From an uncultured Planctomycetales bacterium (GTDB lineage Bacteria; Omnitrophota; Gorgyraeia; Gygaellales; Profunditerraquicolaceae): 64,000 nt of DNA. The position numbers and the translations under genes are program-made. How positions within the stretch are numbered: the stretch's first letter is position 1; the number at the start of each line of letters is the position of its first letter. The notes below the pieces were generated by a model that was not told the DNA's origin, made no database searches, and saw only the letters and a list, made by a program, of their open reading frames with translations. This document shows, piece by piece, positions 9,871 through 60,138 of the stretch. The stretch is taken from contig CAZRVK010000001.1 in the NCBI GenBank assembly GCA_964603585.1, positions 438,541 through 502,540 on the forward strand, given 5' to 3'.

Positions 9871-10115
9871 ATCTTTACCTCATTCACAGAAATACCCAGT
9901 TTCTTTATTTTAGCGCGCAAAGTGTTCCGGTTAATACCCAATAACCTGGCAGCCTTGATCTGATTGCCAAAAGTTATTGCTAATGTATTTTTGATCAATG
10001 ATTTATCCAGCGCATCCAGCATAATATGGTATATTTTGCCTTCCTGCTGTTTAAGAAAAAACCTGTCCAGCTCTGCAAGCGCCTTTTCTATTTCCTTTGC
10101 CTTTTCATCATTCAT
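9867..10115 (-). CDS. Fis-family helix-turn-helix protein (stand-alone)
   Basis: 82 aa. C-terminus AARLLGINRNTLRAKIKKLGI is a Fis-type HTH. Overlaps the gltB start by 4 bp. Confidence 0.6.
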   Translation of the reverse strand: MNDEKAKEIEKALAELDRFFLKQQEGKIYHIMLDALDKSLIKNTLAITFGNQIKAARLLGINRNTLRAKIKKLGISVNEVKI

Positions 10116-10195
10116 TTTTTGTCTAAAAATTAATCACCCGTGTTTAACAAAAAAACTTTACTTGGGGTGCTGATCTCATAAGAACTTATCGCGCC

Positions 10196-12391: not shown

Positions 12392-12421
12392 ATAATCCTC
12401 CTCAAAAGTAAAAATAAAATG

Positions 12422-12763
12422 TTATCCTATTGCTACCGGGCCGCGTTCTTCAGTACGTATACGCACGCATTCCAGAAGGTCTAAAACAAAGATCTTGCCA
12501 TCTCCGGTCTCTTGGGTCTTGGCCCCACTCACAACCGCTCGAATCGTCGGCTCTAAAAAACTGTCATTCACTGCGATCTCCAGCCTAATCTTGCGTAAAA
12601 GGTTACCCGTCTCTTTCGCCCCGCGATAGATCTCGGTTACCCCCATCTGCCGGCCATGCCCCAGCACCTCACTCACAGTGATAAGATTCACCTCTGCTTT
12701 ATATAATTCTTCTTTTACCGATTCTAATTTATCCGGTTGAATAATCGCTATAACTAATTTCAT
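12422..12763 (-). CDS. glnK: P-II nitrogen regulatory protein
   Basis: 113 aa. MKLVIAIIQPDKLESVKEEL and a T-loop region GHGRQMG. Lies directly downstream of amt. Confidence 0.85.
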   Translation of the reverse strand: MKLVIAIIQPDKLESVKEELYKAEVNLITVSEVLGHGRQMGVTEIYRGAKETGNLLRKIRLEIAVNDSFLEPTIRAVVSGAKTQETGDGKIFVLDLLECVRIRTEERGPVAIG

Positions 12764-12859
12764 TGAACACCTCCGCTTTTTATCTAATTAAATCATTTAA
12801 ACCAGCCGGAATCAGCAGAAATAACCCAGGATCACCCAAAGAATGTATAGCCTGCCGTA

Positions 12860-14089
12860 TTATTCCAAAACAGTGTATGCCCTTTCGCGATGCTGGGTAA
12901 GGTCCAAACCCATTAACTCGGACTTTTTATCTACCCTGACACCAATAAATAAATCAACTATCTTATATATCACGATCGTGATCACGCTCGTATAAACAAT
13001 GGTTATCCCTACCGCAGCTAACTGCACTAATAATTGTTTTGGATTGCCGAAAAACAGACCGTCCGCACCAGCCGCATTTACTGTTTTGGAGGCAAATAAC
13101 CCGGTTGCGATTGCACCCCAAATCCCGCCAATACAATGGACGCCAAAAGCATCAAGAGAATCATCGTATCCGAATTTAGGCTTAATTACTGTAACCGCAA
13201 TAAAACAAAAAACACTGACCAGCAAACCAATAATGACAGCCGGGACCACACTGACAAAACCTGCGGCAGGAGTGATCGCAACCAAACCGGCAACTGCGCC
13301 TGAACATAAACCGAATATCGTAGGCTTGCCATTATGATACCATTCAATCAATGCCCAGCTTAACCCGGCAGATGCTGCCGCGGTATTAGTAACTACAAAA
13401 GCGTTGACCGCCAACCCGTTTGCCGCAAGCGCACTGCCGGCATTGAAACCAAACCAGCCGAACCACAATAAACCTGTACCCAGGACTACGAAAGGCATAT
13501 TATGCGGAGTAGGCACATTCTTTTCTAAATTAGTCCGTTTGCCTAAAACAACTGCCGTTATAAGTGCGGCGATCCCGGCATTAATATGCACGACTGTGCC
13601 TCCGGCAAAATCTAAAGCCCCCCAATTACGCAGGAACCCTCCGATTGCCCATACCCAATGACAAAGCGGGGCATAAACAAAAGTTGCCCAAAGTAAAGTA
13701 AAAACAAGAAACGCCGAGAATTTCATCCGTTCGGCAAAAGCTCCAATGATCAAGGCCGGGGTGATGATCGCAAACATACATTGAAAGATCATGAACGCCT
13801 GATGCGGAATAGTTCCGGCATAATCCGGGTACGGCTCTAAACCTACCCCGGATAAACCTGCCCATGAAAACCCTCCCCAAAACCCTTTTCCCGGGGCAAA
13901 AGACAGGCTATATCCGATCAAAACCCAATGAATACTTAAGATACACATTACGATAAAACACTGCATCAAAACACTAAGGACGTTTTTTCTCCTGACCATA
14001 CCCCCATAAAAAAAAGCCAAAGCCGGGGTCATAAGCAGAACCAAAGCCGATGAAATTAAGACCCACGCCGTATCCCCTGAATTTATCAT
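12860..14089 (-). CDS. amt: ammonium transporter
   Basis: 409 aa multi-TM protein with Amt/MEP signatures (DFAGGTVVHINAG, GAFAERMKF). Confidence 0.9.
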   Translation of the reverse strand: MINSGDTAWVLISSALVLLMTPALAFFYGGMVRRKNVLSVLMQCFIVMCILSIHWVLIGYSLSFAPGKGFWGGFSWAGLSGVGLEPYPDYAGTIPHQAFMIFQCMFAIITPALIIGAFAERMKFSAFLVFTLLWATFVYAPLCHWVWAIGGFLRNWGALDFAGGTVVHINAGIAALITAVVLGKRTNLEKNVPTPHNMPFVVLGTGLLWFGWFGFNAGSALAANGLAVNAFVVTNTAAASAGLSWALIEWYHNGKPTIFGLCSGAVAGLVAITPAAGFVSVVPAVIIGLLVSVFCFIAVTVIKPKFGYDDSLDAFGVHCIGGIWGAIATGLFASKTVNAAGADGLFFGNPKQLLVQLAAVGITIVYTSVITIVIYKIVDLFIGVRVDKKSELMGLDLTQHRERAYTVLE

Positions 14090-14142
14090 ATCATGCTCCT
14101 TGATTTAACCTTTCCACGGATCCTGTTTTGCTTTTTCATCTC

Positions 14143-14186
14143 AAAAAAAAGAGACGACTTCCCTTTGCCAGGTTGAAGACGTCTCT
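14143..14186 (-). terminator. intrinsic terminator 2 in the amt leader
   Basis: On the minus strand, AGAGACGuCUUC...GAAGuCGUCUCU forms a 12-bp stem with one mismatch, followed by UUUUUUUU. It sits about 50 nt upstream of the amt ATG. Confidence 0.55.
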
Positions 14187-14252
14187 GTCTTTTTGAAAAA
14201 ATAAGGCCCTTCTCAAAGCACTCATTGCTTGAAAAAGGGCATCTTTGTCCCT

Positions 14253-14285
14253 AAAAAAAGAAGCCCCAAAACTATTTGGGGCTTC
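14253..14285 (-). terminator. intrinsic terminator 1 (for the Zn-ribbon gene and/or an amt leader attenuator)
   Basis: On the minus strand, GAAGCCCCAAAUAGUUUUGGGGCUUC is followed by UUUUUUU. Confidence 0.6.
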
Positions 14286-14314
14286 TTTGCCTCTTTGACA
14301 TCGCTGTCAAAGTG

Positions 14315-14342
14315 AGTATATCATTTTCTTTTTTCTTGTCAA
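14315..14342 (-). promoter_or_regulatory. sigma70-like promoter upstream of the amt leader
   Basis: On the minus strand, TTGACA, a 16-nt spacer, then TATACT. It is followed by the palindrome CTTTGACAgcgaTGTCAAAG. Confidence 0.4.
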
Positions 14343-14376
14343 GTATTATTTTTCAGCAGACTCGCTTAAAACATTC

Positions 14377-14580
14377 TTAACGTCCTTCGTTCTTACGCTT
14401 CGAGTAACAATCCTTGCAATATATCGGACGGTCTTCTCTGGGTTTAAACGGGACCTCGCATTCTTTTTTGCACTCCGAACAAACTGCCTTGTGCATTTCT
14501 CTTGGCCCGCCGAATCCACCACCCTGGTATCCCATTGTTTCCTCCTTCGCCTTAGTTAACCCCAATACTGTCTTCATCAT
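14377..14580 (-). CDS. CxxC-x17-CxxC zinc-ribbon protein
   Basis: 67 aa. CSECKKECEVPFKPREDRPIYCKDCYSKRK matches the VPFKP..DRP.YC..C family signature. Confidence 0.5.
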   Translation of the reverse strand: MMKTVLGLTKAKEETMGYQGGGFGGPREMHKAVCSECKKECEVPFKPREDRPIYCKDCYSKRKNEGR

Positions 14581-14654
14581 GGGGGTATTCCTATTAAAAG
14601 GTTCGACCTTCAGCTGTGATTATAGGTCTTTTAAGAAAGAATGCAAGCCTTTCT

Positions 14655-14846
14655 TTATTCTCGAATATCCTGCCCAGAGGAACACCCTTCAGGCCCAATA
14701 TCAGCATCCAGCGTTTTTTTCTCTATTTTCTTCTGTTTCTTTTCCTCGGCTTTTTTCTTACGCGCCAATTCTTTCTGGTACTTCTTAAATGAATAATTAT
14801 CTCTATTCACAATACTCCCCCTTTTGTTAAGTTTTAAACAGTCCAT
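14655..14846 (-). CDS. small lysine-rich basic protein, unknown function
   Basis: 63-aa ORF with a K/E-rich coiled segment and no recognisable motif. Confidence 0.3.
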   Translation of the reverse strand: MDCLKLNKRGSIVNRDNYSFKKYQKELARKKKAEEKKQKKIEKKTLDADIGPEGCSSGQDIRE

Positions 14847-14867
14847 TATTGCAAACCACTCAAACGC

Positions 14868-16325
14868 CTAAAAACATAAACCTTTCAATAACTCCGGCAA
14901 AAGCGTTTTATAAAGAAAGCTTTTCGAATGTTTACGGCAAAGATATTGCAGGAATACCGGGGATTTCCTATTTAAGAATTCCGGATAATCCAAGGGATGC
15001 CTCTTAAAACGGCTCTCCCATTCTACCCAATCTTCCATTATTCTGGATATCCTCACCCCAGCTTTTTCCTTGAAGGCATAGAGTGTTTTCTGAAAAACCT
15101 GGCTATCATAAAGCCGGTCCATAGCATAGGATAACTTCTCTATTTTCTTTACCTGCTCTTCAGTCATAACATCGCTTTTATATGCATAATACGGGGGATG
15201 CGGATCGTATTTTATCCCAAATGCCGCGGCTTTATCCCGTAAAACCGTACCCGGAAGCAATCTTAAACGGAAAATCACTACTTTTGCCGGCTGCAAAGAA
15301 TAAAGCCAATCCAATGCCTCCATCAGATTGTCATAACTCTGATAAGGAAGTATGTCAATAAGCTGTATTTCATAATAAAGCTTGTATTTATTCAAGTGCC
15401 TTATACCCTGTAAGAATCTTTCTTTATTGAAGATGCGATTAACCGCTTTTAAGGTTTTAAGATTTGTGCTCTGGATACCGATCTCGATATTGTAGGCATT
15501 GGCTTTTGATAAAAGATATGCCATCTCTTCATCAACTAATTCTGCTTTTAGCTCTAAATGCAAATTAGATCCCTGATTGTACCTAACAAAGATCTTGAGG
15601 ATATCCTTGGCCCTTTTAGGATCAGAATTGAAAGTAGCATCCATTAAATAAACTTCATGGGGCTTATGGGAAAGAATAAGCTTTAACTCCCTCTCTACCC
15701 TGGCCAGAGGGAACTTTCTGACTACAGGGAAATTCTTATGATAATAACAATAATGACAACTGGAATAACAGCCTCGCATGGTCTCCAAAGGCACATCAAC
15801 GATTTTCTTATCTTCAAGATCCACCAATCCGGATAAATAAGGTGAAGGGATCCTGCCGATATTACGCATAAGCGGCCTATCCGGATTATGAATGATCTGC
15901 TTATTCTTACGAAAAGATACCCCTTTGGTTTTAAATAGGTCTCGGAACAACTCTACAAAACTCTCTTCTGCCTCACCTCTGGCCACAACATCCACCGCTT
16001 TTTCTTGAAACAATATATCTTCTGCCCTGGGGCTTACTTCCGGCCCGCCCAAAATGATCTTTATCCCCGGCTCCCTCTGTTTTAACCGGCGGCAAATACT
16101 CAAGATCTTTTCAATATTCCAGAGGTAACAGGAAAAACCAATTGCCTGCGGCTTAACCTGAAGGATCTTGCGTATGATCTCCCGGATACTTTGATTTTCA
16201 GGAAAAACACCGATAATAACCTCAAAAGAAGGATTAACTTTGAGCATATAAGCTTTTAGATAATAAAGAGCCAGCTGTACATCAGTACCGGTTTCCAGGC
16301 AAATAGAAGAAAGCAATATTTTCAT
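14868..16325 (-). CDS. B12-binding domain radical SAM protein
   Basis: N-terminal B12-binding-like domain, then a radical SAM domain with the CYSSCHYC (Cx3Cx2C) cluster motif. Confidence 0.8.
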   Translation of the reverse strand: MKILLSSICLETGTDVQLALYYLKAYMLKVNPSFEVIIGVFPENQSIREIIRKILQVKPQAIGFSCYLWNIEKILSICRRLKQREPGIKIILGGPEVSPRAEDILFQEKAVDVVARGEAEESFVELFRDLFKTKGVSFRKNKQIIHNPDRPLMRNIGRIPSPYLSGLVDLEDKKIVDVPLETMRGCYSSCHYCYYHKNFPVVRKFPLARVERELKLILSHKPHEVYLMDATFNSDPKRAKDILKIFVRYNQGSNLHLELKAELVDEEMAYLLSKANAYNIEIGIQSTNLKTLKAVNRIFNKERFLQGIRHLNKYKLYYEIQLIDILPYQSYDNLMEALDWLYSLQPAKVVIFRLRLLPGTVLRDKAAAFGIKYDPHPPYYAYKSDVMTEEQVKKIEKLSYAMDRLYDSQVFQKTLYAFKEKAGVRISRIMEDWVEWESRFKRHPLDYPEFLNRKSPVFLQYLCRKHSKSFLYKTLLPELLKGLCF

Positions 16326-16597
16326 TTGACGATAATTAGTGACGTATAGGTTTAATACCGGCCTTACCCCGGTAATGGCAAGGATTTAATTGTACTCCCC
16401 TCTATGCTGACTGTCTATATATATTTAGGATAAAATCAGCCTCAAAGATCATTATTTTAGGGTTGTATCTTGCTTAACTTATTTAATTACAGATACTTAA
16501 GAATAGCAACTTGATCGTCCAATAAAAACCATACATTCTGGCTTACTTGAAATCGATAACTTAGTGTGCTATATTTATATAGGAAATAGAGCTTACT

Positions 16598-16678
16598 GAT
16601 AAAGGCAAACTAGCAGCAATGCTGGGACGCAAAGCTTCCGGCCCAAGGTCTTGGGCAGCGGGGTTACCAAAGAAGCAA
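16598..16678 (+). ncRNA. c-di-GMP-I (GEMM) riboswitch
   Basis: AAAGGCAAAC, then a P2 hairpin AGCA-GCAA-UGCU with a GNRA loop, then GGGACGCAAAGCUUCCGGCC...GGCAGCGGGGUUACCAAAG. This is a near-consensus match to the Vc2-type aptamer. Confidence 0.72.
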
Positions 16679-16688
16679 AAAACCGCTA

Positions 16689-16713
16689 ACCCTAAAGTAA
16701 TTTAGGGTTTTTG
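16689..16713 (+). terminator. riboswitch expression-platform terminator 1
   Basis: ACCCUAAAguaaUUUAGGGU followed by UUUU. Confidence 0.5.
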
Positions 16714-16721
16714 TATTACGT

Positions 16722-16750
16722 GCCCAGCAAAAAATGCTGGGCTTTTTTAT
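16722..16750 (+). terminator. riboswitch expression-platform terminator 2
   Basis: GCCCAGCAaaaaaUGCUGGGC followed by UUUUUUAUU, 12 nt before the ATG. Confidence 0.55.
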
Positions 16751-16762
16751 TGCGGAGCGAAA

Positions 16763-17059
16763 ATGGCTAAGAAAATAAGAGTTTTTACCTTAATTCTGGG
16801 AGCTATATTCCTGCTTACCTACCAATACGCTTGGGCAGGAGACAGCTACTCCATAAAAGTTTCCTGTGTAATACCGGCGATACCCGGATTTAACGCCCCA
16901 ACCATCATTGAGAAAACAGCCGTTAAACCTAAAGCGGAAGAACCTGTATATAAGGAATCTAATAATAAAGGACTGATCCAGAAGGAAACAAAAAAAGAAA
17001 TTATCTCAAGAGGACAGGAACCAACTTTAATAGCCTTACAAACAGTATATGTAAAATAA
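16763..17059 (+). CDS. small secreted protein (signal peptide), unknown function
   Basis: 98 aa. N-terminal hydrophobic signal LILGAIFLLTYQYAWAG. The only plus-strand gene in the area and the riboswitch target. Confidence 0.45.
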   Translation: MAKKIRVFTLILGAIFLLTYQYAWAGDSYSIKVSCVIPAIPGFNAPTIIEKTAVKPKAEEPVYKESNNKGLIQKETKKEIISRGQEPTLIALQTVYVK

Positions 17060-17064
17060 AACCT

Positions 17065-19968
17065 TTAATCCTTTGTGCGTTTAAGCGGGATATTATGCAC
17101 AAAAACCACACCCTCAAAAAGGGTGATTTTTTTTGTAATAGATATCTCCGGCAAATAATAAACCGGCACGGTGCTTAGATCCAGGTTTAAAATATGTTCC
17201 CCGCTGGAAACATGCGGAAAAGAATACCTGCCCCGGTCATCGGTACTACCCCGGAGCCCATTCTCCAAGGTCAGAGAAACCCCTCTTACTCCCACATCAC
17301 CGCTGGAATACCTGCCGTCGCCATCGACATCCTCAAACACAAAACCAGATATTTCAGAGCGGGCAACAAGGCCGAACTCCAACCGGGATGTCTGAAAGTT
17401 CTTTATATAGGTTGACTGTGTAGCAGGGACCGTTAAAACAAAACCTGCCGGAATAGTAGCAGTATCTATTGTTACCGGCACCAGCCGGCCGCTCACTTTC
17501 TTAAACCTGAAATAGCCAAAGATATCGGTTTCTTCCGACCGGTTCTTGCCCAGCCATATTTTTACCCCGGATATAGGCGGCTCATTATTCTCTCGTAAAC
17601 CATCGGCGTTATAATCCTTGAATACATATCCGTCAATATCGCCCTCTGACTGCCAACTTAATCCAGTATTCCAAAGATATCTGACCCCGGAATTGAAACT
17701 GCCTTCAAGGCGTTTTGTAACATTCTGATTATCTGCCCATACATTGCGCACTCTGGCAGAAGCATAAATCTCACTGCCTTCAGCCGGGCGGAAGGATAAC
17801 TCGGAATAACCTTCGATATAATCCTCCCCGGAAAGAAAACTCAAAGGTGAAGCCGTATCCTGCTCGTTACGATACGTAATACGGGTGGCATTATGGAATG
17901 GGCTTTGACCGATCTGTCCTGACCAATCAAGCCCGGTCTCATAAGCGTTGGGAAAAGTCCTGTTTTTGCTAAATCTTTCCCGCAGCCAATTCACCTCGGC
18001 GTTTGCGTAATAAAACAGATTCCGGATCAAATCAAACCTTAATCCCGCATAAATACGGTCGTTGATATAATCAGACATATGGGAGGAGAAATTAGTGTTC
18101 TCCTGATGAAAATAGGTCAAAGAAGTATTTATTTCCCGGATAAATTTAAAGCTTTTTGCCAAACCAATATCGGCATTCTGATATCTATAGCGGGATAAAC
18201 TCCCTAATCGGTTTTGTAGAGTATAGTTCAATTTAAGAGAGGTCTTAGGATCAAACTGGTATAAAAACCGCGAGGTAAAGTCTTCATTCGGGACAATGGA
18301 ATCCGCCTGTGCCGGAAAAAGCCTGTCTCTAAAAACATCCAGGCTGCTTTCAAAACTTAACTTTTCATTAAACCTGTAGTTGAGATGAAACAAACCTCCT
18401 AATTCCCCCTGGCTCCAGCTGCTGCCGGTGATACTTAAGAACTTTTTGTTAATATTCCTTATCTGCGCATCAAAATCCAGATTGGGACGGATATAATGAG
18501 TATCCAATGTATTGGCGAATGTATTGGAATCAAAAGCTACTTCCTGCCTTATTTTCCAGGCGCCTAAATCCCAGCTCCCCATAAGGTCATAGCCATAATT
18601 ATGCAAATTCTCTTCTCTATCCTGCCCCCATCCCCGTACAAAATTAAACCGGTAATTACTTCCGGCAATCGGGGAATAGTCCAAGTTTATCCCCTCAAGG
18701 AATGCATCTTTCTTCGTATTAAGGTTAAATGAAAGGTTGCCATAACTGGTAGGATTTTCTTTTCCGTGGAAAACCGTATATTTCAAATGATTATTAAATG
18801 CCGGAGAAGAAAACATTACCCCGCGTAAAGCAATCCCCGGGAATGAAAGATTAGAAAAGTACGGCGGGATATCAAAGAAATCGAACCCCCGAAGGCTGAA
18901 TCCCTGAAAAGGTCCTAATTGCCCATTAGTTAAACCCAAGGTATAGTGGCTTAATTTAGTCGCCTGGTATTGAAACTGATTAACGGAAATTGTCGAATCA
19001 AGATCGCCATAGGGGGTTTGCCCCCAAAGGCTAAGGTTATGATTATAAAAATAATCTGTCCGGCCCAAGTCCCTGAAACTCCGGCCTTTTTCGAATAATG
19101 ACCAGTCCATGGAATAAAGCACTTTAAAATTTTCCGCTAACTCTTCGGCCTGGCGCATCTGATCCTCTAAAGTGGGACCTTCGACCCTGGCAGGGACGAT
19201 AAGAAACTCCAAAGTCCACCGGCCATTTTCATCCCAAACATGCATATAAGTATAGCCGATCTGCCGGCCCACAACCAAAAGCTCATCAGCACCTTGCTGG
19301 ACAACCTTTAAAATATCAGGCTGAATAACCAGAAATCTTTGTATGGATTTGCCGGAAATAATTACCCCTTTGCCGAGTTCGACTTGCACAGGAGCGGTCC
19401 CTTTGCTTAAAGATTCATCTAAAATGACCATTTCCTCACTGATCTCTGGAGGCTCTTCTTCCATAGTAACAGGGGGATCTATTCCCCCCTCACCAGTAAC
19501 GGCTACTTCCTGGCTCAACATCTGACTGCCTAAGACCTCTGTCTGAATAAGATGCGAAGGATCTGCCGGTTGTTTTAAGACCGGGTTTAGCGAATGGGTT
19601 TCTTTGCCTAAGATCAACTGCTCGATCATGATCAATTCACGATCCACGATCTCTTTTTTCTCCGATAAAGGTATTGATGGCACATCCGCAACCCGAGCCT
19701 TAGCGGCCTCGGACTTGCCAGTTTTTTGTTTGATCGCACGGATCTTCTGAATATAATCTTGAGCCGGCTTATATCCCGGGAATATTATCAATGCCTTTTT
19801 GAATTCATCCAGGGCATAATCATATAAACCTTGTTTGTAAAGCCTGGCTCCTTCCTCACAAAGAAATTCGTGCACTGATGCTGCATGGGCGGGAAATACA
19901 AAAATAAGGGTCAGGACTAAAACTGCAGAACAAAGGAAGGTTTTCTTCATTATGTTACTTAAACTCAC
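17065..19968 (-). CDS. large outer-membrane usher-like protein (TPR-like plus pilus-N-like N-terminal domains, beta-barrel, two C-terminal Cna-B/SdrD-B-like domains)
   Basis: 967 aa with a signal peptide. GKSIQRFLVIQPDILKVVQQGADELLVVGRQIGYTYMHVW resembles a secretin/pilus-N domain. The long middle is aromatic-rich and beta-strand-like. The C-terminus has GYVFKDYNADGLRENNEPPISGVKIWL and GFVFEDVDGDGRYSSGDVGVRGVSLTL. Overlaps the chaperone-like gene by 14 bp. Confidence 0.45.
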   Translation of the reverse strand: MSLSNIMKKTFLCSAVLVLTLIFVFPAHAASVHEFLCEEGARLYKQGLYDYALDEFKKALIIFPGYKPAQDYIQKIRAIKQKTGKSEAAKARVADVPSIPLSEKKEIVDRELIMIEQLILGKETHSLNPVLKQPADPSHLIQTEVLGSQMLSQEVAVTGEGGIDPPVTMEEEPPEISEEMVILDESLSKGTAPVQVELGKGVIISGKSIQRFLVIQPDILKVVQQGADELLVVGRQIGYTYMHVWDENGRWTLEFLIVPARVEGPTLEDQMRQAEELAENFKVLYSMDWSLFEKGRSFRDLGRTDYFYNHNLSLWGQTPYGDLDSTISVNQFQYQATKLSHYTLGLTNGQLGPFQGFSLRGFDFFDIPPYFSNLSFPGIALRGVMFSSPAFNNHLKYTVFHGKENPTSYGNLSFNLNTKKDAFLEGINLDYSPIAGSNYRFNFVRGWGQDREENLHNYGYDLMGSWDLGAWKIRQEVAFDSNTFANTLDTHYIRPNLDFDAQIRNINKKFLSITGSSWSQGELGGLFHLNYRFNEKLSFESSLDVFRDRLFPAQADSIVPNEDFTSRFLYQFDPKTSLKLNYTLQNRLGSLSRYRYQNADIGLAKSFKFIREINTSLTYFHQENTNFSSHMSDYINDRIYAGLRFDLIRNLFYYANAEVNWLRERFSKNRTFPNAYETGLDWSGQIGQSPFHNATRITYRNEQDTASPLSFLSGEDYIEGYSELSFRPAEGSEIYASARVRNVWADNQNVTKRLEGSFNSGVRYLWNTGLSWQSEGDIDGYVFKDYNADGLRENNEPPISGVKIWLGKNRSEETDIFGYFRFKKVSGRLVPVTIDTATIPAGFVLTVPATQSTYIKNFQTSRLEFGLVARSEISGFVFEDVDGDGRYSSGDVGVRGVSLTLENGLRGSTDDRGRYSFPHVSSGEHILNLDLSTVPVYYLPEISITKKITLFEGVVFVHNIPLKRTKD

Positions 19969-20848
19969 CTACTTTTACCGATCCTCCTTCTCCAATCTCC
20001 ATTTCTGCTTCTTTTACTATTACCGGGCCTCTGCCTGTTCCGGCTTCTTCCAATGCTTTGCCTAAATTAAAAGTAAGGATTAAATGATACTTACCCTTTG
20101 GCAAAGCTTCTTTCCACGTAGCAGAAAGAAGCGCACTATCGCCCGGGAATGTATAGATATCTTTAAACTCACCCCTGGCCAATACCATATTTTTCTCATC
20201 CAGAATATTGAAATTCCCTCCGGCAGTAATATCAACGTTGCCGGTATTCTTGAACTTTATTGAGATCAAAAAAGGATCGTCGGAAGTTGTGTGCTCGACA
20301 CTGTAATCACTTAATTGACCTGTCCGGTTCAAGGAACCTTCTGCCTCTATATAAAACAAAGTAGCGACCCTGATAGCAATATTCATGCCGACTTTAAGGC
20401 CACCCTGCTCGGGCCCGGGATTATTGAATACACTCTCAAAAAATAAAACCGCATAGTACCCCCCTTTTGCCTCGGGAGGAACCCTGACAGAATATTTAAG
20501 TTTTTGTTTGCTAAAAGGCTCCAGAGTAAACTCGGCGGGAGAAAAACTTATCCAGGTAGCAGCAGATAAAGGAGTTGTTCCGGCAGGGAGAAATTCCTTT
20601 GTGCCATCGGCAGGCGGCAAATAACGCCAATCCTCAAGATACGCCCGAATGCTCCTGGTCTCCGAAGTAACATTCTCGATATTTATCTCCCCGTAACCAC
20701 TCTCACCGGGAGAAATAGAAAGCCTGATCTTGGACTGATCGATATACGGTAGCTCGATCGCCTGGGCAAATTGATAAAAGCCGATGAAAAGAAAAATAAA
20801 GAATATCCCTGTACTTATGATCTTGTATCCCTTGATTTTTCCTCTCAT
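19955..20848 (-). CDS. periplasmic pilus chaperone-like protein (PapD/CsuC-like fold inferred)
   Basis: 297 aa with a signal peptide. N-terminal IRLSISPGESGYGEINIENVTSETRSIRAYLEDW fits the PapD_N-type pattern. Sits between the pilin and the usher-like gene. Confidence 0.4.
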   Translation of the reverse strand: MRGKIKGYKIISTGIFFIFLFIGFYQFAQAIELPYIDQSKIRLSISPGESGYGEINIENVTSETRSIRAYLEDWRYLPPADGTKEFLPAGTTPLSAATWISFSPAEFTLEPFSKQKLKYSVRVPPEAKGGYYAVLFFESVFNNPGPEQGGLKVGMNIAIRVATLFYIEAEGSLNRTGQLSDYSVEHTTSDDPFLISIKFKNTGNVDITAGGNFNILDEKNMVLARGEFKDIYTFPGDSALLSATWKEALPKGKYHLILTFNLGKALEEAGTGRGPVIVKEAEMEIGEGGSVKVGEFK

Positions 20849-35971: not shown

Positions 35972-36319
35972 AATCCCCTGTAATTTCCTAATATTTTAGA
36001 GTGATCTTACCATCATAAAACAACCTTTTCGAATGAACATAGCCTTAATACTTTCTTAAAGCAAAAAACCCAAAGCCTGCATTTTCTTGCAGGGCTTTGG
36101 GTTACTTTATAACAATTGCCCAAACCGGATATCCTTAATTCTCTTTTTACTCTTACTCCCCAAAGATACCTCCTTTTACAGGCATCTTGATCTATACTTT
36201 CATTTTCAGGTTGGCAGTTATATCACAGTAGCATCCCGGGAGCAAGTCATTATCCTGCCCAAAACCTTTTTTTTGATTATACTATCAAAAACCCGCACTG
36301 TAAAGCTAAAGTAAAAAAT

Positions 36320-36390
36320 AAAGGGGACGTTTCTATTTTTCTGGTGATGGTTGCATTTTGGGGCTTCAGAAAAATAGAAACGTCCCCTTT
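36320..36390 (-). terminator. palindromic element copy 1, acting as terminator of the amt2-glnK2 operon
   Basis: 21-bp arms AAAGGGGACGTTTCTATTTTT and AAAAATAGAAACGTCCCCTTT with a 29-nt loop, followed by a T-run on the minus strand. Flanked by CCCTTTATT direct repeats. Confidence 0.6.
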
Positions 36391-36413
36391 ATTCCCTTTA
36401 TTCCCCCTTTATT

Positions 36414-36755
36414 CTATACAGCGATATCGCCTTTTTCTCCGGTGCGGATCCTTATAGCATCATCTACAGGATAAACAAATATCTTGCCATCGCCAATTTC
36501 ACCGGTCCTGGCGGTTTTAGCTATAGAATTTACGACTTTATCGAAATCACTGTCCTTAACAATTATTTCGATTTTTACTTTCGGCAAAAAATTAACTTTG
36601 TATTCCCGGCCGCGGAACTGCTCAACCAAGCCTTTTTGCCGGCCATGCCCTTCAATATGCGTGATCATCATCCCGGGGCAGCAATGCAATGTTTCTAAAG
36701 CCTCGGTAACTCCTTCTAACCTTTCTACCCGAATAACTGCCTCTATTTTCTTCAT
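36414..36755 (-). CDS. glnK: P-II nitrogen regulatory protein (second copy)
   Basis: 113-aa P-II fold (MKKIEAVIRVERLEGV...GDGKIFVYPV). Downstream of amt2. Confidence 0.85.
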   Translation of the reverse strand: MKKIEAVIRVERLEGVTEALETLHCCPGMMITHIEGHGRQKGLVEQFRGREYKVNFLPKVKIEIIVKDSDFDKVVNSIAKTARTGEIGDGKIFVYPVDDAIRIRTGEKGDIAV

Positions 36756-43562: not shown

Positions 43563-43904
43563 TTAATAGGCTTTTTCCTCTTGTCTTTCCTGCTGAAAAG
43601 CTTTTAGCTTATCGATCACAATCCCGATTTCATCCCACTTTTTCCTGGGGATATGTCTCTCTAAATCCTTAAGATCAACCTTACTTTCTAATTCCATTAG
43701 CGCCCCTTCGATCTCGTTTAGAATACGGTCTTTATCGGCCTGGATACTATTTAACCGCATCAATTCCTGCTGGAGATATTCAATCTTTTTCCCGCAAAGC
43801 ATAGAACTATCCTGGAGGATGAAAAGTTCTTTTTGTAAATAATAAGCCCTGGTCGCCAATATTACTGCGACCACAACTAATATTGTAAAAATTAACGGTT
43901 TCAT
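43563..43904 (-). CDS. membrane-anchored coiled-coil protein, unknown function
   Basis: N-terminal TM helix, then a coiled-coil region. Confidence 0.3.
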   Translation of the reverse strand: MKPLIFTILVVVAVILATRAYYLQKELFILQDSSMLCGKKIEYLQQELMRLNSIQADKDRILNEIEGALMELESKVDLKDLERHIPRKKWDEIGIVIDKLKAFQQERQEEKAY

Positions 43905-55157: not shown

Positions 55158-55844
55158 TTAAAATAACCGCAAGATATAAATCCCTGTATAATAGAGTCCA
55201 ACGAGAATAAAAATCACTCCGGTAATTCTTCGAGTATAAAATTCCAATTTCGTGATCTTATTAAACCAATGACTCATTGAAGTCACGCCCAGCGCAATAG
55301 CGATAGCGAACGCCAATACCGGAAGCCCAGTCCCCACTCCATAGATAAACGGCAACAACGTCCCCGCTTTGCTATTAAGCGCCAAGGGAATAAGACTGCC
55401 AAAAAATAACGCCGCTGAAACCGGGCAAAACGCCAAGGCGAATATAAGGCCCAAAAGAAAAGCACCCGGAGCGCCGGAATCAACAAGTCTATTGTGATGC
55501 TTCTGTGATAGCGCTACTCCGGGAAATTTGAGCGTGATTACCTCAAGTAGAAATAACCCCGTGATTATCAACAAAGGCCCCAATGCCTTGACCATATACT
55601 TTTGCAGAAACTGCGCAACTTGCGGCACGCTTAAAAGAGAGCTGATAATGATCCAGCCGAGAACCGCATAAGCAACCATCCTGCCAAGTGTATATGCTAA
55701 CCCTGAAATCGCCACACGCGCCGGATGAGTGATCTTTTTTGAAAGAAACGACACCGCCGCGATATTTGTAGCTAAAGGGCATGGGCTAATCGAAGTCAAT
55801 ATTCCCAGCCATAACGCAGAGCCAAAAGCAATTAATAATTCCAT
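55158..55844 (-). CDS. CcdA/DsbD-family transmembrane thiol:disulfide electron transporter
   Basis: Two TM Cys-Pro motifs (ISPCPLA and AFCPVSA), typical of CcdA. Confidence 0.6.
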   Translation of the reverse strand: MELLIAFGSALWLGILTSISPCPLATNIAAVSFLSKKITHPARVAISGLAYTLGRMVAYAVLGWIIISSLLSVPQVAQFLQKYMVKALGPLLIITGLFLLEVITLKFPGVALSQKHHNRLVDSGAPGAFLLGLIFALAFCPVSAALFFGSLIPLALNSKAGTLLPFIYGVGTGLPVLAFAIAIALGVTSMSHWFNKITKLEFYTRRITGVIFILVGLYYTGIYILRLF

Positions 55845-56263
55845 TATTGAGCGTCCTTCATAAACGCATTCACTTCGCCGGTCACGTAATCAATAAACTT
55901 CTGCTTGTTGCGAGCAAGTTCCCAGATCTTATCGAGATTCTTCGATTTAACTTCCTTCCCGTCCTTGATCATTGAGAGAATAAGTGATTTGGTATACAGC
56001 TTATAGTCATTCACAAAATGCTCGTTACCCCGATCCTCGACATTAACGACCTTGAACTCAAGATTGCCTGAATCAAGAGCATCTTTGAAATTTAAATCAA
56101 TCGCTTCCATTGAATACTTCTCCATGTTCATGCACGTAGGGCAACGAAATGATCCATGGAAATAATACGCTACGACTTTTGCTGAACTGCTTTCTGCCGC
56201 AAAGGCTATCGGAGCGCTAATTACCGCAACAACCGCCAGAATTACAAGAAGAAGTTTCTTCAC
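55844..56263 (-). CDS. secreted thioredoxin-fold CxxC protein
   Basis: GTG start preceded by AGGAGG. Signal peptide KKLLLVILAVVAVISAPIAFA. Active-site FRCPTC. The long ORF-track N-terminus is rejected because it overlaps the DGC gene. Confidence 0.5.
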   Translation of the reverse strand: MKKLLLVILAVVAVISAPIAFAAESSSAKVVAYYFHGSFRCPTCMNMEKYSMEAIDLNFKDALDSGNLEFKVVNVEDRGNEHFVNDYKLYTKSLILSMIKDGKEVKSKNLDKIWELARNKQKFIDYVTGEVNAFMKDAQ

Positions 56264-56621
56264 TTTTACCTCCTGAAATTTTATTGGCCGCTTTCTCAAT
56301 ATTTTCCTCACTAACTTGAGTCTTACCCTTCTCAAATCCGATTTCTTTAAGATTAAAAGAAATCGGATTAAATCCAGCATGTTCAAGAATCTTTTTCGAA
56401 CATAAAACCTGACATCCATCAATGGCGATAATTTTATTCGCCGCCTTCGCCGACTCGACCATACCCGGGACATGCGCTCCGATACCGGCTAAGCAAAACA
56501 TCTTTGCCTGCCCGCATTTGGCCATCTTGCGCGCCAGGCGATCGGACAATTCTCCCACATCAGACCCGCCGGAGCACGGAAATATCAAAGTACCTGCCTC
56601 TTGACACATACAATTACCCAT
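56217..56621 (-). CDS. DGC-domain protein (putative metal/metalloid chelating)
   Basis: AIDGCQVLC DGC motif and a Cys-rich C-terminus CNSGGCCGN. Confidence 0.65.
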   Translation of the reverse strand: MGNCMCQEAGTLIFPCSGGSDVGELSDRLARKMAKCGQAKMFCLAGIGAHVPGMVESAKAANKIIAIDGCQVLCSKKILEHAGFNPISFNLKEIGFEKGKTQVSEENIEKAANKISGGKSEETSSCNSGGCCGN

Positions 56622-56678
56622 TAATGTCCTCCCTTGCAGTTAGCAAGCACCCGCGCAATTTTTGCATAAACAGGGGTG

Positions 56679-56912
56679 CTATTTCGATAAAATCATTTTA
56701 ATCTCATCTTTACTTAATACCTTTCCTACCGAAATCACTGTTCCGTCGACCGCAAAGCCCGGAGTCATCATGACACCGTACTCGGTGATCTTATCAATAT
56801 CGGTAACCTTACCGATCTCGGCTTGAATGTTCAGCTCTTTAACGGCCGCCTCGGCATTGGCCGTAAGCTGTTTACATTTAGGACAACCGACACCCAAGAT
56901 TTCTATTTTCAT
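56679..56912 (-). CDS. thioredoxin-family small protein (redox-active disulfide protein 2 type)
   Basis: 77 aa with the MKIEILGVGCPKCKQL CxxC motif. Confidence 0.75.
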   Translation of the reverse strand: MKIEILGVGCPKCKQLTANAEAAVKELNIQAEIGKVTDIDKITEYGVMMTPGFAVDGTVISVGKVLSKDEIKMILSK

Positions 56913-56925
56913 TCTCTGCCTCCAT

Positions 56926-57708
56926 CTATTTTTTCACCGCTGAAACTTTTATACTCACGATAGCGTCAGAAGCGACCTCAAGATTGTCAAACATGGCATC
57001 AACCGGATAACTGGCTTGACTTATTACCTTAATATCCTGAAACCCCGCCTGCTCAATAAAACATAAATATTCTTCTTTCTTAATTGCTCCGGCAAGACAT
57101 CCCACATATGCCTCAACAGAATCCCTGATTTCTCGCGGAAGTTCTTTTGCCAACACCAAATCCGAGACCATCAACCTACCTTCTACTTTCAAGGCCCGGT
57201 ACGCCTCTTTAAATACTGTTTCTTTATCAGGTGACAAGTTAATAACGCAATTTGATATGATCACATCGATTGAATTGTCTTCTACCGGAAGTTTTTCGAT
57301 CTCCCCCAGCCGAAAATCCACATTGGCATAGTTACCCTTTTTTGCATTTTCTTGCGCTTTAGCGACCATCTCCGGCGTCATGTCAACGCCGATGACCCTG
57401 CCGGTCTTGCCGACACGTTGGGCCGACAAAAATGCATCGAATCCCGCGCCGCTTCCTAAATCGAGCACAACATCGCCTTCCTTTAATGAAGCAAGGGCTA
57501 CCGGATTCCCGCATCCAAACCCTAAATTTGCCCCTTCAGGAACAGCATTAAGCTCTGCATCACTGTATCCCACTTTTTTACTAATATCTTCCGCCTGCGT
57601 TACACCGCCACAACACGAATTCGAAGAACAGCATGACTTCTTTTTCGACAACGCTTTTGCGTAGCCGTCCCTAACGATCTTTTTGATTTTATCCGCTTCG
57701 TTTTTCAT
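56926..57708 (-). CDS. arsM: arsenite S-adenosylmethionine methyltransferase
   Basis: SAM motif VLDLGSGAGFD plus conserved As-binding cysteines (GCGNP, ISNCVINL). Confidence 0.85.
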   Translation of the reverse strand: MKNEADKIKKIVRDGYAKALSKKKSCCSSNSCCGGVTQAEDISKKVGYSDAELNAVPEGANLGFGCGNPVALASLKEGDVVLDLGSGAGFDAFLSAQRVGKTGRVIGVDMTPEMVAKAQENAKKGNYANVDFRLGEIEKLPVEDNSIDVIISNCVINLSPDKETVFKEAYRALKVEGRLMVSDLVLAKELPREIRDSVEAYVGCLAGAIKKEEYLCFIEQAGFQDIKVISQASYPVDAMFDNLEVASDAIVSIKVSAVKK

Positions 57709-57873
57709 TTATATCCCTTCCCTCTTAAGTTTTGAGACATTCTCTTTATCGATCTGTTTCTTGATTACCTCTCTAACAAAATCCAGTGCCTCATCTTTAT
57801 CCCGATCAAGGACAATCTGTTCAATCCTAAGCAAATCCGCCTCACTAAGATTAATTGTCTTTTTAAACGTCAT
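57709..57873 (-). CDS. cryptic 54-aa ORF, ribbon-helix-helix-like (below the ORF-track size cutoff)
   Basis: MTFKKTINLSEADLLRIEQIVLDRDKDEALDFVREVIKKQIDKENVSKLKREGI. Its ATG overlaps the arsP stop (ATGA). Its TAA is immediately followed by the arsM ATG. Confidence 0.4.
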   Translation of the reverse strand: MTFKKTINLSEADLLRIEQIVLDRDKDEALDFVREVIKKQIDKENVSKLKREGI

Positions 57874-59042
57874 TTGACTATCGTTCCAAAAATCATCCCG
57901 CTTATCGTCGCCATAATGACCACAAGGCCAACATACACAACAGTTTTTTTTGTACCGATAACTTCACGAATAACCAGCATGCTCGGCAAGCTCAAAGCAG
58001 GCCCAGCCAGAAGAAGCGCCAGCGCTGGCCCCTTCCCCATACCAGATCCGATCAAACCCTGTAAAATAGGCACTTCTGTAAGCGTGGCGAAATACATGAA
58101 CGCCGCTACGATCGATGAAAAAAAGTTCGCCCTGAAAGAATTGCCTCCGACCATCGCCTCCACCCAGCTGGAAGGAATAACGCCTTCATGGCCAACCCTA
58201 CCCAAGAGAAACCCTGATATCAAAACCCCACCTAAAAGAAGCGGCAATATCTGTAGGGCGAATCCCCATGAAGCGGATGTCCACTCTTTAAGTTCATCTT
58301 TCTTAAACCAATTAACGAGCGTCAACCCTAAAACTACCAGGAAAAATCCGGTAATCCACCATTTAGATGCATAGATCAAACTCCAAATGCCGGTATCGCC
58401 CTCTATCGGCTTGGCCCAATTAGCAAACACGAGTATTGCTACCATCGAAAAGAAATAAACAATATCTTTCCATAACGGACGGCTTGCCTTAACCTCTCCA
58501 AATTGAACATCTCCGTTAGCGTGGCGGGCACGCTCCTCCTTTAGGAAAATCAAATGCATGAATAACCCTATAACAATACTAAAAATGACTGCCCCAATAG
58601 CCCTGCCTAAGCCTAACTGCCAGCCAAGGATCCGGGCTGTCAGGATAATCGCTAAAACATTGATGGCCGGTCCTGAATATAGGAATGCAATCGCGGGACC
58701 CAGCCCAGCGCCTCTCTTATAAATCCCCGAGAATAACGGCAGAACCGTACATGAACAAACAGCAAGAATAGTCCCGGACACTGAAGCCACGCTGTAAGAA
58801 AGAAACTTGTTTGCCTTGGCTCCAAAATACTTCATCACCGACGCTTGGCTGACGAACACAGATATCGCTCCGGCTATAAAGAACGCCGGAACAAGACACA
58901 AAAGAACATGTTCCCGGGCGTACCATTTAACAAGCGCTAATGCCTCAAAGAGCGCGTTAGTAAACCGCAGATTCTCAATTGGTAAGTAAAAACACGCCAA
59001 GAATACCGCTACAACGTATAATAACTTCTTCCACTCGTTCAT
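57870..59042 (-). CDS. arsP: DUF318 permease, ArsP-like organoarsenical efflux permease
   Basis: Multi-TM protein with the TM Cys motif AVCSCTVLP (compare ArsP TPFCSCSxxP). Embedded in the ars operon. Confidence 0.7.
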   Translation of the reverse strand: MNEWKKLLYVVAVFLACFYLPIENLRFTNALFEALALVKWYAREHVLLCLVPAFFIAGAISVFVSQASVMKYFGAKANKFLSYSVASVSGTILAVCSCTVLPLFSGIYKRGAGLGPAIAFLYSGPAINVLAIILTARILGWQLGLGRAIGAVIFSIVIGLFMHLIFLKEERARHANGDVQFGEVKASRPLWKDIVYFFSMVAILVFANWAKPIEGDTGIWSLIYASKWWITGFFLVVLGLTLVNWFKKDELKEWTSASWGFALQILPLLLGGVLISGFLLGRVGHEGVIPSSWVEAMVGGNSFRANFFSSIVAAFMYFATLTEVPILQGLIGSGMGKGPALALLLAGPALSLPSMLVIREVIGTKKTVVYVGLVVIMATISGMIFGTIVK

Positions 59043-59347
59043 TTCTTAACCATCCTTCCTCCAATAGTACAGCACCCGCCCTCGATACGGATCGCCTTAA
59101 CATTAACCAATGCTTCCGTTACCTTCTTGCAGGCTGAAGCAACTATCCGCGAGAATGTCGGCCGGGATATTTTCATCACCTTTGCGGCATCCTTCTGTTT
59201 CATTCCCTCAAGGCAAGCCAAACGCATCGCTTCAAACTCATCAATGCTTAAAACCACGCCATCAAGTTCATTTAATGGTTTGCACTTAGGGCGAAAACAT
59301 CTCTCACCCGGCAAACATTTAACCCACCTGGTTTTTTTCGGCCTCAT
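59039..59347 (-). CDS. DUF134 (UPF0251) putative DNA-binding protein, first gene of the ars operon
   Basis: WVKCLPGERCFRPKC N-terminal Cys motifs, an HTH core AAKVMKISRPTFSRIV and a C-terminal AIRIEGGCC. Paralog of 725..1075. Overlaps arsP by 4 bp. Confidence 0.6.
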   Translation of the reverse strand: MRPKKTRWVKCLPGERCFRPKCKPLNELDGVVLSIDEFEAMRLACLEGMKQKDAAKVMKISRPTFSRIVASACKKVTEALVNVKAIRIEGGCCTIGGRMVKK

Positions 59348-59384: not shown

Positions 59385-59412
59385 ATTATATCACGAATTC
59401 GTGCCGGGTCAA
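59385..59412 (-). promoter_or_regulatory. sigma70 promoter of the ars operon with an embedded 12-bp palindrome (candidate operator)
   Basis: On the minus strand, TTGACC, then cgg-CACGAATTCGTG-a as a 16-nt spacer, then TATAAT. The perfect palindrome CACGAATTCGTG (59392..59403) sits between the -35 and -10 elements. Confidence 0.55.
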
Positions 59413-59469: not shown

Positions 59470-59556
59470 CAGGGAAAAAAGGGGGAAAAAAGGGGACGTT
59501 TCGAAAAAAGGGGACGTTTCTATTTTTTTTAGAAAAATAGAAACGTCCCCTTTATT
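59470..59556. repeat. palindromic element copy 2 (same 21-bp arms as 36320..36390) with an extra partial arm and AAAAGGGG direct repeats
   Basis: GGGAAAAAAGGGGGAAAAAAGGGGACGTTTCgAAAAAAGGGGACGTTTCTATTTTTtttagAAAAATAGAAACGTCCCCTTT. The arms are identical to those at locus 1. Confidence 0.7.
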
Positions 59557-59567
59557 GCAGGCACACC

Positions 59568-60016
59568 GGCACAATCTGGATGCTTGCGTTAAAAAGTTGG
59601 ACGCGCTTTTCAATATGCGCTTAAACGAAGAGATCAGCCCAGAGGAATATGCTCGGAAGAAAGACGATCTGACGAAGGCAAAGCAGAAATATGAATGATT
59701 GATCGCGGATACGCAAGACCGCGTTGAAACATGGCTCAAACGGGCTGAAGATATGTTTACATTCGCCCAAACCGCCCAGAAACGGTTCGACACGGGCACT
59801 TTGGAGGACAAGCGGTATGTTCTCTCGTGTCTGGGCACAAAACTCGTCTTACACGGCAAGAAACTGCAATTTGAGCAGGAAAAGTGCCTTGCCATGTTCG
59901 AATGTGTGGCACCTGACGTACAAAGCCTCCACAACAGGTTAGAACCGACGCAACTCGTTGATTCTATGACCAGTTGGGAGGCTTTATATGCTCAAAATAA
60001 AAAATGGGGTGGGTAA
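59568..60016 (+). pseudogene. large serine recombinase C-terminal remnant with in-frame TGA
   Basis: Translation gives LDALFNMRLNEEISPEEYARKKDDLTKAKQKYE, then a stop, then LIADTQDRVETWLKRAE...KRYVLSCLGTKLVLHGKKLQFE. This has the coiled-coil and C-terminal beta-strand pattern of large serine recombinases. There is no catalytic N-domain and an in-frame TGA at 59696..59698. Confidence 0.5.
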
Positions 60017-60082
60017 CGGGGATCGAACCCGCAAACCTTCTGAGCCACAGTCAGACGCTCTAACCAGTTGAGCTATACCCAC
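60004..60082 (-). tRNA. tRNA-His (anticodon GTG)
   Basis: Cloverleaf with G-1:C73 and acceptor GTGGGTA/TACCCAC. D-arm GCUC-AACUGGUUA-GAGC. Anticodon loop CUGUGGC. T-arm GCGGG-UUCGAUC-CCCGU. CCA is encoded. Confidence 0.85.
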
Positions 60083-60138
60083 CATAAGGGGTCAAGTATA
60101 TCTTATGCAAATACGAAAATCAAGAAGATATTGCCAAA

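Follow-up and report, generated by a model that had tools for sequence, protein, structure and literature searches.

A truncated large serine recombinase gene at the 3' end of tRNA-His in an Omnitrophota contig, the probable scar of a compact integrative element

Introduction

At one point in a 64,000-nucleotide stretch of an Omnitrophota contig (hereafter the window), a piece of a large serine recombinase (LSR) gene runs into the 3' end of a tRNA-His gene, with resistance and stress genes adjoining it on the other side. Is this piece the trace of an element that integrated into the tRNA gene, and did that element bring the neighboring genes with it? A first-pass annotation of the window had proposed both, describing a decayed integrative element and, as part of it, a resistance island of about 12 kb. 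The former is upheld by the remnant, its junction with the tRNA and 26 related loci, while the latter is not. The features on which the following argument rests are collected in Table 1.

Table 1. Positions of the features discussed, in the window and at related loci (L numbers).
Feature	Position	Strand	Basis or remark
LSR gene remnant	59559..60016	+	last ~152 codons and stop; tblastn, blastn, alignments
In-frame TGA nonsense codon	59696..59698	+	E or G in aligned homologues
Element-side arm of attachment site (P arm), ends TGGGGT	59972..60010	+	within last recombinase codons; forms attR with the tRNA
Putative crossover zone, TGGGGT	60005..60010	.	only stretch common to element and host sides across loci
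tRNA-His (GTG), complete, with G-1 and encoded CCA	60005..60082	-	ARAGORN; Rfam RF00005, 63.9 bits
Palindromic repeat unit, copy B, adjoins 5' break	59486..59556	-	hairpin and U-run, z = -4.3
Palindromic repeat unit, copy A	36319..36391	-	z = -6.2; just past stop of minus-strand gene 36414-36755
Sigma-70-like promoter candidate for DUF134/ArsP operon	59385..59412	-	TTGACC, 16 nt spacer, TG-TATAAT; 11/12 consensus match
Region of tRNA-His in closest relatives	L032 16330-16838; L033 9344-9421		
Distant recombinase relatives at tRNA-Trp/tRNA-Pro	L028 10567-10638; L029 10563-10638; L030 2994-3069		
Truncated unrecombined recombinase copy	L001 9690-10495		phage-like genes at 10600-20400
DNA left of intact elements	L005 437-4151; L012 849-4380; L013 ~4330-4390		

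Results and Discussion

A recombinase fragment with a nonsense codon

The plus-strand frame from about 59540 to 60016 reads ...LLQAHRHNLDACVKKLDALFNMRLNEEISPEEYARKKDDLTKAKQKYE, a stop, LIADTQDRVETW...SWEALYAQNKKWGG and a second stop, the first of the two being the TGA of Table 1. Positions 59559-60013 of this frame are homologous to residues 366-524 of intact LSRs of 524-542 aa, the C-terminal 159 residues of the 524 aa form, so that 30% of the gene is left in the window. The fragment aligns with the intact recombinases of two related loci at 75% (L005, E 1e-76) and 81% (L012, E 4e-84) amino acid identity in tblastn, and blastn extends the similarity to L012 from 59561 to 60085 at 85.7% nucleotide identity. 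Since only residues 366-524 are matched, the piece is the putative coiled-coil and C-terminal region that, by homology to intact LSRs, lies past the zinc ribbon. When full-length L005 and L012 were used as tblastn queries, neither the Resolvase catalytic domain with its active-site serine nor the Recombinase and zinc-ribbon domains were found in the window. The same lack of a tblastn match led us to reject a split or inverted gene with its N-terminal half elsewhere in the window. With its catalytic domain missing, the locus is therefore a remnant and not a recombinase; the first-pass annotation, which had described a serine-recombinase remnant without catalytic domain made of the coiled-coil and C-terminal part, was right on this point.

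Database profiles contributed little to this identification. Pfam held no significant model for the fragment, PHROGs returned a weak match to PHROG 95 'integrase' (E 1.8e-4), and a search of PDB sequences with the C-terminal profile gave nothing meaningful, no PDB sequence covering the fragment. A protein homology search with the fragment retrieved 26 proteins, up to 80% identical and mostly from Candidatus Omnitrophota, some of which (P0009, P0015, P0026) carry the zinc ribbon PF13408.

The in-frame TGA, also noted by the first-pass annotation, is a real stop in this genome. It terminates 15 of the 46 long minus-strand open reading frames (ORFs) of the window, and the standard code leaves long ORFs here without interruption; on this ground TGA as a sense codon was rejected. 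Where the window has TGA, the closest relatives over that half of the fragment have GGA (Gly) and others GAA (Glu).

Could the fragment nonetheless be a working gene, either with TGA decoded as an amino acid or as a domesticated C-terminal protein made from the 105-codon ORF at 59699-60016, for example a site-binding protein that blocks re-integration? We consider this very improbable. Such a reading would fit the absence of frameshifts over the 152 codons of the remnant, the small number of unusual substitutions and the retention of C-terminal fragments in many genomes. Apart from the use of TGA as a stop, however, the fragment is without the cysteines of the zinc ribbon, by which the DNA-binding domain is defined, and no promoter-like site or start context accompanies it. 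Truncated or frameshifted copies of the recombinase are common in other genomes, and they are broken at different points (residues 146, 270-289, 366, 389 and 404), as in random decay; such scatter is expected where deletions cannot extend into an essential tRNA.

Furthermore, the low level of decay is explained by a recent origin. Over its final ~250 nt the remnant shares 93-98% identity with the intact gene of L012, from Candidatus Omnitrophus magneticus, and the two differ by three silent and two replacement changes over the 78 codons at the 3' end. The tRNA-His genes of the window and L012 differ despite the near-identical recombinase ends that adjoin them, and this combination indicates horizontal transfer with little decay since. 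By these comparisons the remnant is of recent foreign origin and, except for its truncation and one nonsense codon, little decayed. Substitutions specific to the window were considered as signs of decay and dismissed, the pattern TKL..H..QFEQEKCLAMFEC being common to the intact genes of L012 and L013. The remnant (59559-60013) is also a mosaic, its first half nearest to a variant seen in L010, L011 and L020 (80-93% nucleotide identity), which has GGA at the TGA position, and its second half to L012 (93-98%), which implies recombination between element variants. It is an ordinary integrase remnant that cannot recombine and has no likely function, and the locus is an ordinary scar.

The junction with tRNA-His

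The recombinase frame ends at a TAA (60014-60016) that lies within the acceptor stem of the tRNA. An overlap of the gene end with the tRNA 3' end had been put at 13 bp; the overlap is real, and measures 12 bp including the stop. At the DNA level, every relative linked to tRNA-His keeps AGTTGGGAGGCTTTATATGCTCAAAATAAAAAATGGGGT, and immediately past it the sequence becomes host-specific; an alignment of the gene ends of all loci shows GATTGGGAGGCTTTATATGCTCAAAAYAAAAAATGGGG on the element side to be conserved including its silent positions. Past TGGGGT, the window and the tRNA-His-linked loci each continue into the tRNA-His sequence of their own host, and the identity of the window to L012 stops at this hexamer. 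Read on the opposite strand, the hexamer is A71-C72-C73-CCA, with which tRNA-His ends. The right junction of the window is thus the conserved P arm joined to tRNA-His at a fixed position. An arm conserved up to TGGGGT, with host-specific tRNA beyond, points to a crossover within the last 5-6 nt of tRNA-His, that is, the discriminator and CCA.

The left junction (attL) is a different matter, as nothing in the window matches the left ends of L005, L012 or L013. With attL not found, integration is inferred from one junction and from comparison with the relatives; and since the window holds neither a left junction nor any gene of the element module described below, the element is truncated. We also examined two other arrangements of the attachment site. 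An attP located inside the gene, so that integration would split it, was rejected because at many loci an intact gene meets the tRNA with its own 3' end; a left arm that would repeat the right arm in inverted form gave no clear match in the intact loci. The stub also marks tRNA-His as an integration hot spot.

Intact relatives and their element

A scan of species-representative genomes with the recombinase family yielded the 26 related loci. After extension of frames, intact recombinases of 524-553 aa were found in L005, L006, L007, L012, L013, L015 and L018, which come from other Omnitrophota and from Planctomycetota genomes. The genes end in ...NKKWG and overlap the 3' end of tRNA-His in all of these except L013, where the gene is intact and the contig stops at the junction. 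In L012 the intact gene occupies 9116-10744. The intact proteins carry the catalytic motif YFLYARKSSENEDKQVAS and match the Resolvase model PF00239 (E 3e-19, motif YFLYARKSS); in L005 the domains run from Resolvase PF00239 (residues 9-152) through Recombinase PF07508 (197-266) to Zn_ribbon_recom PF13408 (279-336). They also match the solved structures of the SPbeta YokA and TP901-1 recombinases (E 1e-9 to 3e-6).

Upstream of the intact recombinase lies a conserved module, observed in L005, L006, L007, L012, L013, L015, L019, L021 and L026. Its order is a variable gene, a DUF5906 protein of primase/helicase type (~680 aa), two small genes whose products (~150 and ~210-230 aa) belong to no family, a MerR/HTH_17 protein of 77 aa and then the LSR. 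By its position, the MerR/HTH_17 protein may be an excisionase (Xis-like). A homology search of the window against the intact elements recovered no module gene, whether primase/helicase, small genes or MerR/HTH_17. The left end of the element was placed by homology between loci: L012 and L013 are homologous from L012 position 4386 to the tRNA and L005 has the same left end, giving a length of ~6.3 kb.

Because the element arm sits inside the last recombinase codons, the reading frame of the integrated gene continues into the tRNA, and the acceptor stem supplies its stop. Depending on the host tRNA, the tail of the integrated gene accordingly reads WGG-stop, WGE-stop or WGS-stop, or continues for ~19 extra codons (L006, L012, L020). 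L009, which is the same as L001-L004, shows an unrecombined 3' end instead (WGRSHYNPG..., +33 codons). In this group, a 1.6 Mb Omnitrophota contig and three other assemblies, the recombinase is truncated at residue ~289 and no tRNA-His lies within 10 kb; downstream of the recombinase come phage-like genes for an HNH protein, a JAB/UQ_con/ThiF ubiquitin-like set, a trypsin-like protease, a large terminase and a ParB-methylase. A search of viral contigs for the recombinase family gave no match.

Two side observations concern the surroundings of these elements. On the left of the intact elements, L005 and L012 have type I restriction-modification genes that are 68-79% identical at the nucleotide level; L005 also has a regulator pair, Schlafen/AlbA_2 and HATPase_c_4, of which L013 shares only the AlbA_2 start, and defense genes appear to collect beside the tRNA-His integration site. 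More distant recombinases, at 25-33% identity, end on or beside the 3' ends of tRNA-Trp and tRNA-Pro, and targeting of tRNA 3' ends may be a trait of a wider clade.

The break point and a palindromic repeat

The 5' end of the remnant coincides with a dispersed palindromic repeat, whose presence on this side of the fragment the first-pass annotation had noted and which we could confirm together with its second copy. In copy B, a perfect palindrome of 21-24 bp at the break, the arms occupy 59504-59527 and 59533-59556, with an additional tandem 18-mer at 59485-59502. The nearer arm is 3-5 bp from 59559-59561, where blastn places the start of homology with the element. A 15-mer of the repeat has five matches in the window against 0.25 expected by chance, and the 64 kb contain two copies of the unit. 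Transcribed from the minus strand, these would form hairpins with perfect stems of 21 bp (copy B) and ~30 bp (copy A), with UUUUUU or UUUAUUUUUU right behind. Rich in A/U, the stems exceed those of typical terminators in length, and Rfam gave the hairpin only microRNA-type matches below threshold. Judging from its structure and location, the palindrome is probably an intrinsic terminator with which the tRNA-His/Mla transcription unit ends; to its left, the promoter candidate would mark the start of the next unit.

Truncation points are not, as a rule, accompanied by hairpins. Of the loci checked, only the window and L009 have one, the latter (with L001-L004) in the form of a 20 bp perfect palindrome just upstream of the recombinase break. 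A related Omnitrophota contig (L036, 2101-2604) carries an IS200/IS605-type Y1 transposase gene. Transposases of this type mobilize hairpin-ended repeats, and one of them is a possible origin of palindromic repeat families like that of the window.

A break this close to a dispersed repeat of ~70 bp raises the concern that a longer or full-length element, interrupted by the palindrome, was shortened when the assembler jumped between copies. The contig is metagenome-assembled, and the join between the remnant and the block to its left lies at the repeat. Moreover, a single further contig, the independent L031, has the identical flanking genes, and it ends inside tRNA-His; at many related loci, too, the contig stops close to the element. 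Run SRR15237810 contains identical flanking genes. We nevertheless regard an artifact as quite unlikely: the repeat has just two copies in 64 kb, a hairpin and U-run followed by a strong promoter-like site make a coherent operon boundary, and other assemblies commonly show truncated remnants next to tRNA-His (L014, L017, L023, L025). The TGA, in addition, makes the gene dead regardless of how the join came about.

Collectively, these data make it highly probable that the locus is the attR scar of a ~6.3 kb LSR element at tRNA-His, later deleted to a stub that also acquired a TGA. In the order of events that we infer, an element made up of the LSR, a small MerR/HTH_17 protein, two small proteins and a DUF5906 primase/helicase would have integrated site-specifically into the last 5-6 nt of tRNA-His. 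A later deletion would have removed everything from the left junction through about codon 365 of the recombinase, with its endpoint at the foot of the long terminator-like hairpin, and a G-to-T change would then have turned GGA into TGA. The tRNA-His itself is intact, and ~450 nt of dead coding sequence now lie between it and its probable terminator.

Comparison with described integrative elements

To place the family, we compared it with the LSRs of SPbeta (SprA/YokA), TP901-1, A118/LI, phiC31 and Bxb1 Int. The intact relatives share their order of Resolvase, Recombinase and zinc-ribbon domains and match the catalytic domains of YokA and TP901-1, whereas the window copy is a dead fragment. 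Very short identity between element and host sites is usual for the LSR class, and here amounts to 5-6 bp. To our knowledge, the well-studied LSRs target protein-coding genes or intergenic sites and not tRNA ends. The present family differs from them in its target, the CCA end of tRNA-His, and in the position of the element arm within the last codons of the recombinase. A precedent for this second feature is the myxophage Mx8, in which attP lies inside the int coding sequence and integration alters the 3' end of int. As in Mx8, the attachment site overlaps the integrase 3' end, with a tail of WGG-stop, WGE-stop or ~19 extra codons in the integrated gene as against the +33 codons of L009; unlike the serine recombinase of this family, Mx8 Int is a tyrosine recombinase.

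The locus also recalls classical tRNA-linked islands with integrase pseudogenes, in that a remnant lies beside the 3' end of a tRNA and accessory-type genes adjoin it. Those islands usually involve tyrosine integrases, and at their far border the 3' end of the tRNA is directly repeated. In contrast to them, the window shows neither a far-border repeat nor a shift in composition.

The closest described kind is that of tycheposons and PICI-like elements, which are likewise small, target tRNAs and combine an integrase with a primase/helicase; the likeness is one of architecture. The tycheposons of Prochlorococcus, small elements that integrate at tRNA genes, encode an excisionase besides their integrase and primase/helicase (Hackl et al., bioRxiv 10.1101/2020.12.28.424599). 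Most of them use tyrosine recombinases and a minority use an LSR, and they leave partial copies of the tRNA; degenerate integrase fragments also remain in the tRNA-adjacent islands of Prochlorococcus (bioRxiv 10.1101/2020.12.28.424599). The elements described here differ from tycheposons in belonging to other phyla, Omnitrophota and Planctomycetota, and in that neither a cargo module nor a partial copy of the tRNA was observed.

A literature search returned no paper that pairs a large serine recombinase with tRNA-His, or Omnitrophota with a serine recombinase. The tRNA-His-targeting LSR elements are thus a family for which we found no paper, and one of a known general kind. We advance a broader reading tentatively and with some doubt, namely that a compact LSR and primase/helicase family, for which no description was found in the literature, spans Omnitrophota and Planctomycetota and carries its attachment arm within the recombinase gene in such a way that the tail acts as a switch. 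In the same tentative sense, the family may have the CCA end of tRNA-His as its target while more distant kin use tRNA-Trp and tRNA-Pro, and its integration may rewrite the tail and stop of the recombinase. If this were true, a tail rewritten from the host tRNA could amount to a built-in switch between the integrated and the free state. The family is of moderate interest because its serine integrase has a defined target, the 3' end of a near-universal tRNA, and because it recurs in poorly studied phyla; the unusual overlap of attachment site and gene end could supply new integrases as well as a case of integration-dependent change in an integrase tail.

The neighboring resistance genes

Did the same element also bring the block of genes to the left of the remnant? 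The inventory given by the first-pass annotation (ars genes, a fluoride channel, a beta-lactamase, a P-type ATPase and a superoxide dismutase) was accurate: Pfam identifies DUF134, ArsP_1, a methyltransferase, DsbD_2, SBF, LMWPc and CrcB, followed by DUF190, a class A beta-lactamase, a P-type ATPase and an Fe/Mn superoxide dismutase (SOD). We take the SBF gene to encode an ACR3-like arsenite carrier and the LMWPc gene an ArsC-like protein.

The two further marks of an island that had been suggested, a composition shift over 46.8..60.0 kb and a direct repeat of the tRNA-His 3' segment at a far border, were both looked for in the window without success. GC content is 0.42-0.46 between 46 and 60 kb and 0.39-0.47 elsewhere in the window, and the tetranucleotide distance of 0.135-0.189 compares with 0.113-0.187 in the rest. 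The window contains no second tRNA-His 3' end, no partial tRNA and no left end of the element. A 14 bp match at 43829-43842 was considered as a tRNA repeat and rejected, being on the wrong strand and of a size expected by chance (E 0.02). A serine recombinase requires only a few shared bases between its sites, which makes the absence of an att repeat weak evidence against an island.

The arsenic genes offer a further line of evidence. A cassette of DUF134, ArsP, methyltransferase, thioredoxin and DsbD, in some cases with ACR3, occurs in the window (55158-59347) and in L038-L041. ArsP is 85-95% identical in more than 100 Omnitrophota proteins or clusters, compared with 72% for the best MlaD relative, so the cassette either moves between genomes or evolves very slowly. 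Elsewhere in Omnitrophota it sits among Tad pilus or TrkH/efflux genes, and in none of the loci examined was it beside tRNA-His or a recombinase.

Comparison with the closest relatives shows where the gene order changes. Their MlaD is 70-72% identical and the Mla operon is shared, yet synteny is lost right after MlaD; tRNA-His lies ~5.7 kb further on, beyond five other genes, and none of their downstream genes are found in the window. In the closest relative, the genes between MlaD and tRNA-His encode a FecR-like protein, a protein of unknown type, a CHASE2-SpoIIE protein, an ion channel and a GDSL lipase, and the gene right after tRNA-His presumably encodes a ParB-like product, not a recombinase, at which point the contigs break. 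The tRNA-His site thus looks like a variable spot in this lineage. An older island at this tRNA-His, unrelated to the element, is possible, given that the closest relatives are only ~70% identical and that synteny breaks here.

Taken together, these data make it unlikely that this recombinase brought in a ~12 kb island (about 46.8-60.0 kb) with ars, crcB, bla, ATPase and SOD genes as cargo. Several observations would suit such an island. The resistance and stress genes directly adjoin the remnant, the gene order shared with the closest relatives is lost here, and the ars cassette, found in differing contexts with highly similar ArsP, may be mobile. The restriction-modification or Schlafen/AlbA_2 genes left of the elements in L005, L012 and L013 likewise indicate that variable DNA gathers at this tRNA. 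The intact elements, however, are ~6.3 kb long and carry no ars, bla or crcB cargo, and the block is no outlier in GC or tetranucleotide distance. Its genes are oriented like those of the rest of the window, in which neither a partial tRNA-His nor a sequence resembling attL nor any further mobility gene was found, and the cassette occurs elsewhere with no adjoining tRNA-His or recombinase. A deleted compact element, with no cargo of this kind, therefore remains the preferred reading. While the stub itself matters little for the window, it cautions against calling neighboring resistance genes cargo without evidence.

The orientation of the genes is also of note for the window as a whole. Long ORFs are almost confined to the minus strand, with 46 ORFs of at least 150 aa on this strand compared with 11 on the plus strand, and GC skew is negative throughout positions 1-64000 (-0.10 to -0.29), so that the entire window looks like part of one replication arm with strong gene-strand bias.
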